A stretch of 61,970 bases of DNA from an uncultured Clostridia bacterium (GTDB lineage Bacteria; Bacillota; Clostridia; Christensenellales; UBA1242). Below the pieces are notes generated by a model. That model saw only the letters and a program-made list of their open reading frames with translations. It was not told where the DNA came from and searched no databases. Shown piece after piece: positions 906-14,925 of the stretch (the stretch's first letter is position 1; each line of letters opens with the position of its first letter). The stretch is from NCBI GenBank assembly GCA_944349415.1, contig CALVMX010000003.1, forward strand, positions 1 to 61,970, given 5' to 3'. The position numbers were made by a program, and so were the translations under genes.

Positions 906-998
906 AAATTTTATAACCACTTAAATTTGCTTACATAGTTTTTGAGGTTTAATTTACTTTTAAATTTGTGCTATGGAGTTTATGTTTTAGCATGCTGG

Positions 999-1082
999 GC
1001 AAAATCACAGTTCGCTAAAGCGAACGCCAAGTTTTGAAAAAACTTGGACGAAAAATTTGAAAAATTTTTCGAGTGATTTTGC
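999..1082. repeat. Perfect four-way-junction (cloverleaf) palindromic element A
   Basis: Outer stem GCAAAATCAC/GTGATTTTGC (10 bp) encloses hairpins of 6, 9 and 10 bp with single-nt linkers. Confidence 0.85.
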
Positions 1083-1191: not shown

Positions 1192-1419
1192 ATGGAAAAA
1201 GAATATCTAGAACTTTTAGAGAAAGTAAAAAAAATTGAAAAGGAATATGGCTCGCTTGAAAATTTTGCTATTTTATCAACTTGCGGAAGAATCAAACATA
1301 AACTGAGAATAGGACGGAGTGTAGACTTAGAAAGTGTCTATGAAGAACTTTCTGACCTAGAATATGCCGACCTAATAGACTATCAAAATTTAAAAGGCGA
1401 ATATGGAGAAAGATTTTAA
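1192..1419 (+). CDS. Putative antitoxin for the adjacent MazF (atypical, no clear RHH domain)
   Basis: 75 aa, SD-like AAGGA, acidic C-terminus, overlaps the mazF start by 17 nt; called on position. Confidence 0.6.
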
Positions 1420-1756
1420 ACGAGGAGAGATATACTTTGCTGACCTTAGTCCCGTGGTTGGGAGTGAGCAAGGTGGCGTTCGTCCTGTTTTAATCATTCA
1501 AAACAATGTCGGAAACAAATATTCGCCAACCGTCATAGTGTCTGCAATTACCAGTCAACTTTCAAAAGCGAAACTTCCAACTCACATTGAACTTCCATCG
1601 TCAAAATATCACTTACCTAAAGACTCAGTAGTTTTACTTGAACAAATACGAACACTTGATAAACGTCGACTTAAAGATAAAATTTCGGCAATAGACACAT
1701 ATAAGATGAAAGAAATTGATAAAGCGATTTTAATTTCATTAGGTTTTGTAAATTAG
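1403..1756 (+). CDS. mazF: MazF/PemK family mRNA interferase (NdoA/EndoA type)
   Basis: [44 protein letters not shown]; [13 protein letters not shown]. Confidence 0.97.
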
Positions 1757-7460: not shown

Positions 7461-8293
7461 AAGGTCTTGTTTTAAAGAAAAATGCCGACAAGTTTACTGT
7501 GGAAATAGAAGATAAAAAAGAAATATGCACTGCACGTAATTTGAAAGAGCAAGGTATCTTTGTTGGCGATAGAGTGGAAGTAAGCGGAAACGTTATTGAA
7601 AAAGTGCTTTCTCGAAAGAATCTACTTGTTCGACCGCCACTTGCTAATCTCGACAAAATGATAATCGTAATTGCCAAAACTCCAAAGCCTGATTTTCTTC
7701 TTGTTGATAAACTTTTAATTTTTTGCACTCTCAATGATATTGAACCTCTTTTATGTATCAATAAAAGTGATTTGGGAGAGGACTTTGTGGAAGAAGTAGT
7801 AAAAAATTACGAAAAAGCTACAAAAATTGTTGTGATTTCCACACTTGATGACACAGTTTTATGCCTAAAAAAAGAAGTTAAAGGAATAACCACACTTGCT
7901 GGACAAAGTGCTGTTGGGAAATCTTCCATCATTAATGCGATTTTTAAAAGTGAAATTACGCAAATTGGTGATTTTAGTAAGAAAGTGGAACGTGGAAAAC
8001 AAACCACTCGTCTTGTTGAGTTATATGAAGTTGAAAAAAGTAAATATCTAGCGGACACAGCGGGTTTTTCCAAACTTGATGAAAAACTACTTAATGTTGA
8101 TGAATATGAATTAAGAAAATATTATCCGGAATTTATTGCTCCTTCGCATAATTGTAAGTATAAAAGTTGCTTGCATTTATCGCCAAAAGATTGCGGTGTT
8201 TGTGAGGCGGTAAAAAACGGTAAAATAAGCAAATTAAGGTATGAAAACTATAAAATTTTGCAAGAAAATATAAAAAATGTAAAAAGATTTTGA
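7457..8293 (+). CDS. rsgA: Small-subunit ribosome biogenesis GTPase RsgA/CpgA
   Basis: NKSD, GQSAVGKSS, GKQTTR, DTAGF, C-terminal CKYKSCLH..C zinc site; TTG start. Confidence 0.95.
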   Translation: MKGLVLKKNADKFTVEIEDKKEICTARNLKEQGIFVGDRVEVSGNVIEKVLSRKNLLVRPPLANLDKMIIVIAKTPKPDFLLVDKLLIFCTLNDIEPLLCINKSDLGEDFVEEVVKNYEKATKIVVISTLDDTVLCLKKEVKGITTLAGQSAVGKSSIINAIFKSEITQIGDFSKKVERGKQTTRLVELYEVEKSKYLADTAGFSKLDEKLLNVDEYELRKYYPEFIAPSHNCKYKSCLHLSPKDCGVCEAVKNGKISKLRYENYKILQENIKNVKRF

Positions 8294-11025: not shown

Positions 11026-11110
11026 TATCCATAAAGAGTGTGTGAGGGACTGCCCCTTTGACCACACAGCAACCTGAGTTTTCAAGGTGCTAAAGGCAGA
11101 CCGATGGAAT
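11026..11110 (+). ncRNA. SAM-I (S-box) riboswitch aptamer, compact variant
   Basis: AAAGAG, GAGGGACTG, GCAACC, GGTGCTAA core motifs; P2 GTGTG/CACAC; upstream of metK. Confidence 0.9.
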
Positions 11111-14850: not shown

Positions 14851-14925
14851 GGTCCTATGGTCAAGCGGTTAAGACGCAGCCCTCTCACGGCTGAATCAGG
14901 GGTTCGATTCCCCTTAGGATCACCA
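14851..14925 (+). tRNA. tRNA-Glu (anticodon CUC)
   Basis: Acceptor GGTCCTA/TAGGATC, anticodon arm CAGCC-CTCTCAC-GGCTG, T-loop TTCGATT, encoded CCA; promoter TTGATT 14815/TATAAT 14839. Confidence 0.97.

Follow-up and report, generated by a model that had tools for sequence, protein, structure and literature searches.

The 84-nt element at positions 999-1082 of contig CALVMX010000003.1 (NCBI GenBank assembly GCA_944349415.1, from an uncultured Clostridia bacterium; the whole stretch analysed, 61,970 nt, is hereafter called the window) may well be one copy of a dispersed family of mobile nested-palindrome DNA elements of ~75-97 bp, which resemble REP elements (repetitive extragenic palindromes) but are new in architecture, and whose stems would be enforced at the DNA level. 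We put the probability of this reading at about 0.55. The family is found in the source genome, in its sister species and in distant members of the genus, and some copies, including that at 999, have been kept at one locus through several speciations. The source genome is of 1.18 Mb (33% GC) in 51 contigs, of which the window is contig C3, and the organism occurs in chicken-gut metagenomes. Note that the elements are named below by the contig of the source assembly and the start position (e.g., C8 28733 and C1 57931).

Direct reading of the 999-1082 element (84 nt; Table 1) agreed with a preliminary description of the window in the coordinates of every stem, loop and linker. The four linkers are of 1 nt each (1009, 1026, 1048 and 1072), and all the pairs are Watson-Crick. 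With RNAfold, the four-way junction was both the minimum free energy and the centroid structure (-37.5 kcal/mol), and none of 200 dinucleotide shuffles (-20.8 +/- 3.3 kcal/mol) was equally stable. Two perfect four-way junctions had been claimed for the window, and both of them, the 999 element and its sister at 59262-59342, were confirmed by direct reading and by RNAfold (z = -5.05 and -7.95, respectively).

A topology scan against dinucleotide-shuffled controls, as had been suggested, was performed in a strict form (three or more adjacent perfect hairpins, with linkers of 2 nt or less, inside a perfect closing stem of no less than 6 bp). It detected 20 loci in the source genome and none in five block-wise dinucleotide shuffles, i.e., far above the controls; two-hairpin versions were as frequent in the source genome as in the shuffles. 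With a sliding RNAfold scan, 29 clean elements of 74-97 nt were obtained from the source genome and none from 295 kb of unrelated genomes. The closing stem (8-14 bp) of these elements surrounds exactly three hairpins, the loops are of 3-5 nt (rarely 7 nt), 0-4 junction bases are unpaired, and the stems are essentially mismatch-free. All 29 elements are intergenic in a genome of which ~90% is coding, they are richer in GC than the surrounding DNA, and they were recovered again in independent assemblies of metagenomes and in assemblies of other species. The proposed class of intergenic elements with one architecture (~75-97 nt, a closing stem with three hairpins, linkers of 0-1 nt) was thus borne out.

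Pair statistics were taken from an Infernal alignment (50 rows, both strands), which was fitted to the model and so leans towards structure; in this alignment, 98.5% of 1642 aligned pair cells were standard pairs. Double-sided changes were found in 35 of 35 pairs (800 cells) and one-sided changes in only three cells, there were ~14 G·U cells, and pairing fell to 31-49% when the partners were slid by 1-3 columns. The loops have no strand asymmetry (A = T, G = C), eight of them are self-complementary tetraloops, and no GNRA or GNA loop motif was found among the elements. The orientation relative to transcription is also mixed (12 sense, 6 antisense). Because G·U pairs are nearly absent, the loops are strand-symmetric and the orientation is mixed, the constraint appears to act on both DNA strands.

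Strain variation, for which six elements were pooled over four DNA metagenomes, follows the fold: the share of variable positions was 19/76 for unpaired bases, 32/845 for the flanks, 6/92 for stem edges and 6/358 for stem cores (unpaired vs. flank, p = 1.7e-9; unpaired vs. stem core, p = 4e-11). Loops and linkers are ~6.6 times more variable than the flanks, and the stems are less variable than the flanks. At the 999 element, variants in the H1 region were seen only in the loop (1017) and the linkers (1009 and 1026), and in H2 the change 1035 T>A together with the deletion of 1037 gave a perfect 8-bp stem with the loop AGAA; the sole strain variant inside the 59262 element was at loop position 59325. 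In one strain, H2 of C8 28733 showed an exact loop inversion (AAC to GTT), and in other loops of the elements two or three adjacent bases were changed at once. Replication template switching within hairpins has been described to leave such traces, namely inverted loops and compensated changes of several bases (PMC8794818), and the pattern observed here includes both: the AAC-to-GTT inversion, 3-nt loop replacements where the flanks are ~4% diverged, and the 800 double-sided changes against three one-sided ones. The stems are probably kept perfect by selection and template switching at the DNA level.

Pairwise comparison in both orientations revealed subfamilies. To that of the 999 element belong C8 28733 (inverted), C9 27686 and C22 7946, with the common outer stem GGGCAAAATCAC and recognisable hairpin modules; one paralog was already detectable by plain BLAST. 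The 59262 subfamily (C8 11942, C10 18749 and C5 48542) has the common outer stem GGGCGAAG, a third subfamily has common AAAATTTTTAAC hairpins, and a fourth consists of near-identical 74-nt copies within a ~165-nt unit at contig ends. It is mostly the outer stem that copies share. The preliminary description had considered the elements to be purely structure-defined and without primary-sequence similarity, which does not hold for the 999 element with its three GGGCAAAATCAC paralogs nor for the GGGCGAAG subfamily of the 59262 element. Most elements also have a common polarity, the hairpin at one end being short and GC-rich and that at the opposite end long and AT-rich. A covariance model (R1) for which only the 999 element's four orthologs (see below) were used found every other element at full length with 20-54 bits, usually with a far higher score on the polarity-matching strand. 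Because the subfamilies share the polarity and R1, from the 999 family alone, detects all the others, the elements look, from their sequences, like one old and diverged superfamily and not like independent structures.

As for the model building, a MAFFT alignment of all the elements was discarded, since no consistent structure was obtained and the alignment was still gapped after trimming to one geometry. The elements were realigned with Infernal starting from R1, with the 59262 element held out; the resulting model (R2) gave the held-out element 49.6 bits with the filters off, against window noise of at most 18 bits. With its default filters, cmsearch missed the 59262 copy, and only the filters-off search found it. 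The genome search with R2, in which only a few pre-filtered candidates are scored, recovered 3 of the 29 known copies in the source genome and found no elements at the class level, so no distribution was drawn from it.

The ~165-nt unit of the fourth subfamily is composed of a 74-nt four-way junction (GTGATG...CATCAC) and a conserved extension of ~75 nt, and is bounded on both sides by AATATAAA(C/T)TA. Its copies (C19:12537-12711, C7:45451-45639, C9:42369-42596, C10:32611-32723 and C8:1-78) are 95-98% identical and in tandem in C9; two further copies are in contig 1 of the sister genome G345, and the unit has no Rfam match. It appears to be either a composite element of its own or that branch of the family which is active at present.

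Gain and loss were examined by comparing strain contigs at six elements and by a BLAST search of the concatenated flanks against four sister genomes. At C8 28733, 103 nt (CTCTCTTAC, the element and CCA) are replaced by AAAAT in G345, G346 and one metagenome contig. C2 42336 is absent in G344 and G347, where the flanks abut (G344 has 8 nt instead of 98 nt). Likewise, C1 57931 and C1 11869 are absent in G346, and C2 34118 and C5 48542 in G345. The check for empty sites was thereby extended beyond the recX-mazEF junction: six further copies, at other loci, have clean empty sites in sister species, and the genomes with the empty sites carry related elements at other loci. The borders of the empty sites are sharp and lie at the closing stem, and no target-site duplication was found at the two cleanest filled/empty pairs (C8 28733 and C2 42336). 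Contig 1 of G345 (373 kb) has four clean elements against 29 per 1.18 Mb in the source genome, a density difference of about two-fold, and the filters-off search detected ~3 elements in 200 kb of the distant G008.

In the orthologous spoIVA spacer of the closest sister species, G344 (L222; G344:C36:1941-2039), the GGGCGAAG-family element is closer to the inverse-oriented C8 11942 than to the 59262 copy; this implies that paralogs have undergone replacement, inversion or conversion while the locus stayed fixed. In L199:3123-3236 (G008:C2:43123-43236), a fold resembling a four-way junction has its closing stem and first hairpin made up of a tRNA gene's real 3' end (GGTTCGAATCCCACC...CCA) and a downstream inverted copy of the tRNA end, into which two small perfect hairpins are inserted; this fold suggests that closing stems can arise by inverted copying of neighbouring DNA. 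In a member at L191:2102-2241 (G008:C1), the third hairpin (AACACTGCCG/CGGCAGTGTT) encloses ~58 extra nt, including an apparent small terminator hairpin. Hairpin loops of the elements can apparently accept insertions.

The locus of the 999 element was compared across species. A scan with the outer-stem pattern (one genome per species) gave 52 stretches, of which six contained true four-way junctions, all in uncultured Clostridia, and the closing-stem arm (10-12 nt) is common to the three paralogs and the elements of six other species. A pattern scan of metagenome contigs gave one true element, identical to that of L068. Orthologs of the 999 element are located upstream of mazEF in L028, L061, L068 and L070 (identities: RecX 76-92%, MazF 88-97%, PriA 88-97%). 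In the sister species L061, there are about 9 differences in 225 flank positions (~4%), none in 70 stem positions and two in the four linkers, and the H3 loop is TCC for GAA. Compared with L028, two stem pairs (in H2 and H3) are changed from T-A to C-G on both sides, and all the loops differ. The L068 ortholog has one C·A mismatch, that of L070 has the same outer stem with different hairpins in the opposite polarity, and in the more distant species L072 the same outer stem surrounds unrelated GC-rich hairpins. The 999 copy is conserved in place across five species while the flanks become unalignable.

A test for enrichment near toxin-antitoxin loci had been suggested. A link of the element to the toxin-antitoxin pair was not upheld: the locus is ancestrally acpS-mazEF, and the element stands where distant relatives have a terminator. 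The acpS gene precedes the element in L028, L068 and L070, and has been lost from the site in the source genome and L061. In the distant genus members G001, G008, G018, G019 and G020, the acpS-mazE spacer has an ordinary hairpin and T-run terminator and lacks the element, so that an element-free spacer corresponding to the recX-toxin-antitoxin junction, for which a check had been proposed, was found; in G022 this spacer is almost nil. In L028 and L068, the element is followed by a separate hairpin and T-run. As for the neighbouring genes, window positions 1192-1756 encode MazE-like (75 aa) and PemK/MazF-like (117 aa) proteins in overlapping frames, and RNA contigs cover this module in three runs. 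At window positions 906-998, relatives carry acpS (holo-ACP synthase, MIGFDLQEVE...) between recX and mazE, and the source genome has an acpS-like open reading frame on C30 (~7475-7849).

In the reading that we favour, that of mobile DNA elements, the fold would matter in the DNA, where either strand could form hairpins or cruciforms, and not in one RNA. The perfection of the stems would have two sources: mismatches would be selected against, and one arm would be rewritten in replication with its partner as the hairpin template (template switching). The same template switching would also invert loops and make multi-base compensated changes in one step. Spread would most likely proceed via a folded single-stranded DNA intermediate that is handled in trans by an enzyme other than a resident RAYT/IS200 transposase (RAYT, REP-associated tyrosine transposase). 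A possible host benefit, for example as a structural block or insulator between transcription units, would be secondary.

Several points weigh against this reading. Template switching is inferred from the patterns and was not observed. A mobilising gene was not found: the only Y1 transposase fragment has four stops, TnpB is absent, and the IS200 copies of two relatives are not flanked by the elements. Filled sites gain the element with 3-9 nt on each side and lose 5-8 nt, a pattern that none of the known transposition chemistries explains neatly. Most copies differ by 25-40% from one another, which implies no recent burst except in one subfamily. The copy at recX-mazEF is far better conserved than its flanks; since a selfish element should decay in place, this conservation points to constraint in situ, i.e., a host function or a cost of imperfect palindromes. 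Lastly, the 999 copy lies within one metatranscriptome contig, and the RNA data are assembled contigs, in which zero depth does not prove that RNA is absent.

A more radical version, which we entertain tentatively, is that the elements are self-maintaining DNA four-way junctions, an undescribed kind of element, in which the fold itself would be the unit that is recognised, copied and repaired. Such junctions might spread without a dedicated transposase, by template switching or a host junction- or hairpin-processing enzyme, and their closing stems might originate by inverted copying, as in the tRNA-end copy of G008.

An RNA function was weighed against the genomic position of the elements and the RNA data. 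The fold might be selected in the transcript as a structured RNA acting in cis at transcript ends, such as an exonuclease barrier in the 3' untranslated region, an unusual (bidirectional) terminator or a processing signal. The position of the elements agrees with this: 25 of 27 are next to one or two gene 3' ends, divergent genes flank only 2 of 27 (100 of 424 background spacers), 15 of 18 in co-directional spacers are closer to the upstream stop than to the downstream start, and most are 0-100 nt downstream of a stop codon in either orientation, seven of them starting 0-7 nt after the stop codon or overlapping it. So do the strong covariation, the presence of the 999 copy in a metatranscriptome contig and the ordinary terminator that distant relatives have where the source clade has the element. 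A crude scan found no other terminator-like hairpin in 17 of 21 element-bearing spacers; however, the frequency of such hairpins (4 of 21) is not significantly different from that of the other spacers (124 of 455), and substitution for a terminator was rejected on this basis. RNA stems normally tolerate G·U pairs and one-sided changes, whereas both are almost absent here (~14 of 1642 cells for G·U), the orientation is mixed, and the loops have neither motif nor strand bias and are often self-complementary. A U-tract after the closing stem is missing in most copies, no terminator is predicted on the + strand at 999-1082, the separate hairpin and T-run of L028 and L068 follow the element, and copies are dispensable between sister species. 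Furthermore, the perfect 59262 copy is located behind a working terminator: the spoIVA-like RNA contig (depth 80) ends at 59218-59250 in its own hairpin and T-run, the next contig starts from ~59458, and no RNA contig covers the copy in four RNA runs, so far as the assembled contigs tell (59251-59440 is apparently untranscribed). Although missing coverage by assembled contigs is weak evidence, a function in RNA would hardly account for a copy that is perfect where the DNA is apparently not transcribed, and we regard this explanation as unlikely.

The elements might instead be a domesticated DNA structure with a host function, namely a cruciform site that buffers supercoiling or binds a junction- or hairpin-recognising protein (HU, gyrase or RuvA-like), as proposed for REP and bacterial interspersed mosaic elements (BIMEs). 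The strand-symmetric, DNA-level signature and the location between transcription units would be expected of such a site. The hypermutability of unpaired positions suggests that the hairpins really form in vivo, and the outer stem is conserved even around the unrelated hairpins of L072. On the other hand, six of the examined copies are absent in sister species without replacement, the density differs about two-fold between the source genome and G345, no binding protein or phenotype is known, and no enrichment at any particular gene class was seen. We regard a domesticated, functional structure as improbable, but the strong conservation of the recX-mazEF copy, which is kept in place in five species with unalignable flanks, speaks in its favour.

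The flanks of the closing stem bear on a further explanation, that the elements are true RAYT-REP members, i.e., miniature elements of the REP/REPIN type or of IS200/IS605 origin that a Y1 (HUH) transposase mobilises. Of 52 flanks, 7 have NCCA (mostly ACCA) immediately 3' of the closing stem (0.64 expected, p = 3.6e-6), and 14 have CCA within 7 nt (3.2 expected, p = 1.8e-6); the opposite strand reads TGG(T), in many cases preceded by a T-run. A comparison of the filled and empty sites of C8 28733 shows CCA to be inserted there along with the element, and in several copies TGG and CCA are both present and simply form a frayed extension of the closing stem. In our view, the motif is either the outer end of the mobile unit, in a frayed state, or the sign of a preference for certain targets. 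It is reminiscent of the GTAG/CGTC tag in REPs and of the tetranucleotide at which IS608 is cleaved, and the elements are, like REPs, extragenic, palindromic and without target duplication. The TGG tag is on the GC-skew leading strand in 9 of 10 unambiguous cases, but this bias is not significant once the GC skew is allowed for (p ~0.08). The preliminary description had also suggested a test for enrichment near HUH nucleases, but no link to them was found: the only match to PF01797 (Y1_Tnp) in the source genome (C16:27410-27592, 27 bits) is a decayed IS200-type remnant with four in-frame stops (one TGA, three TAA), only 3 of 31 genus genomes have a match, and G008 carries elements without one. 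In G006 and G010, the IS200 copies have leader hairpins of the ordinary kind and no four-way junctions beside them, and the element model gives them at most 21 bits. The same ends were found on no Y1 or TnpB element (other insertion sequence families were not searched exhaustively), and no TnpB was found. Moreover, the copies are not near-identical as in REPINs, and a four-way junction of ~85 nt is unlike the 20-40-nt REP hairpins. Membership in the RAYT-REP system is therefore doubtful.

A side observation at this border is that strains differ in the G-rich TGG-tag region 5' of the C6 23551 element (TTTTTGTGGTGGG; C6:23541-23543) by an inserted G, A or GTG, a repeat-number polymorphism. A tRNA-like reading of the NCCA flank was also tried and rejected, as ARAGORN was negative (no tRNA genes at 26 element loci) and the CCA strand is mostly antisense to adjacent genes; the loops are of 3-5 nt, unlike the 7-nt anticodon and T loops of a cloverleaf, and the enrichment of NCCA flanks is the only resemblance to tRNA.

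Chance inverted repeats of AT-rich DNA or an assembly artefact, suggested by the 33% GC of the genome and by a few AT-only candidates of the strict scan that do look like chance (C1 72495 and C40 3223), were ruled out by the empty shuffle and unrelated-genome controls, and the recurrence in independent assemblies and the higher GC of the elements also oppose them.

Table 1. Positions in the window of the parts of the 999-1082 element and of its sister element
Feature	Position	Strand or pairing	Remarks
5' flank TGG	996..998	+	Adjoins the closing stem; TGG/NCCA motif that recurs beside family members
Closing (outer) stem, 5' arm GCAAAATCAC	999..1008	10 bp with 1073-1082	Sequence and RNAfold
Hairpin H1	1010..1025	6 bp, GTTCGC 1010-1015/GCGAAC 1020-1025	Loop TAAA; short GC-rich end
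Hairpin H2	1027..1047	9 bp, CCAAGTTTT 1027-1035/AAAACTTGG 1039-1047	Loop GAA
Hairpin H3	1049..1071	10 bp, CGAAAAATTT 1049-1058/AAATTTTTCG 1062-1071	Loop GAA; long AT-rich end
Closing stem, 3' arm GTGATTTTGC	1073..1082		
Second family member, GGGCGAAG subfamily	59262..59342	Polarity opposite to the 999 element	Perfect four-way junction, RNAfold z -7.95

Neither an Rfam family nor a described repeat matching the elements was found, and the preliminary description had named a match to an Rfam motif or a known insertion sequence end as one observation that would speak against a new class. At the gathering threshold, Rfam detected only a SAM riboswitch (11026-11110, 54.6 bits) and a tRNA (14851-14922, 64.3 bits) in the window; the best match at 950-1130 had E = 0.53 (14 bits against a threshold of 50 bits), and 25 further element loci gave no match at E of 0.1 or less. 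In the literature on four-way-junction or cloverleaf intergenic repeats, no description of such elements was found.

If the reading as mobile DNA elements is correct, small genomes of gut Clostridia carry a dispersed palindromic class that is defined by a closed four-way DNA junction, an architecture that is not in the catalogues of REPs, miniature inverted-repeat transposable elements (MITEs) and Rfam, and of which sequence-only repeat finders catch pieces only. The family would be a natural experiment on the persistence of perfect palindromes in bacteria, in which template-switch mutagenesis is directly observable in population data, and it would pose the question of which enzyme inserts an 85-bp junction without target duplication in genomes lacking Y1 transposases. 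In practice, the elements break short-read assemblies (one subfamily is at contig ends) and can be mistaken for small RNAs or terminators in annotation.

Among known systems, REP/BIME and REPINs of Enterobacteria and Pseudomonas are similar in being short extragenic palindromes in tens of copies, mostly past gene 3' ends and in both orientations, with presence/absence between relatives, no target duplication, compensated evolution of the arms and a short tag beside the structure. However, REPs are single imperfect hairpins of 20-40 nt (two in REPINs) with high identity within a genome, a cognate RAYT gene and the GTAG/CGTC tag, whereas the present elements are closed four-way junctions of ~85 nt with three nested perfect palindromes, strongly diverged, with a TGG/NCCA flank and no intact Y1 gene in the genome. 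MITEs (Correia/CREE, RUP, BOX and ERIC) are likewise non-autonomous intergenic repeats of ~100 bp with terminal inverted repeats and predicted folding, but they have target-site duplications, an identifiable parent insertion sequence and similar copies; for our elements neither a duplication nor a parent was found, and the interior consists of three perfect palindromes. Intrinsic terminators, including bidirectional ones, are also perfect two-strand palindromes downstream of genes and occupy the same place in the acpS-mazEF spacer; the elements differ in being multibranched and mostly without a U-tract or T-run, and one copy stands behind a working terminator in apparently untranscribed DNA. 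Integron attC sites are recombination sites recognised by their fold (57-141 nt, sometimes with branched variable terminal structures), but they have conserved R/L core boxes, obligatory extrahelical bases and mismatches, and are located in cassette arrays beside an integrase; the elements are perfectly paired and solitary between housekeeping genes, and no core boxes were seen in their outer stems (no search for intI was made). The inverted terminal repeats of parvoviruses such as adeno-associated virus (AAV) are T-shaped nested palindromes that terminate a linear single-stranded DNA genome and have two inner hairpins, flip and flop forms, and sites where Rep binds and nicks. The elements differ from these in having three hairpins, in being chromosomal and dispersed and in having no associated Rep, and the likeness, by analogy, may lie in an outer palindrome that encloses inner ones, in one arm that would template the other and in inner loops that occur in both orientations.

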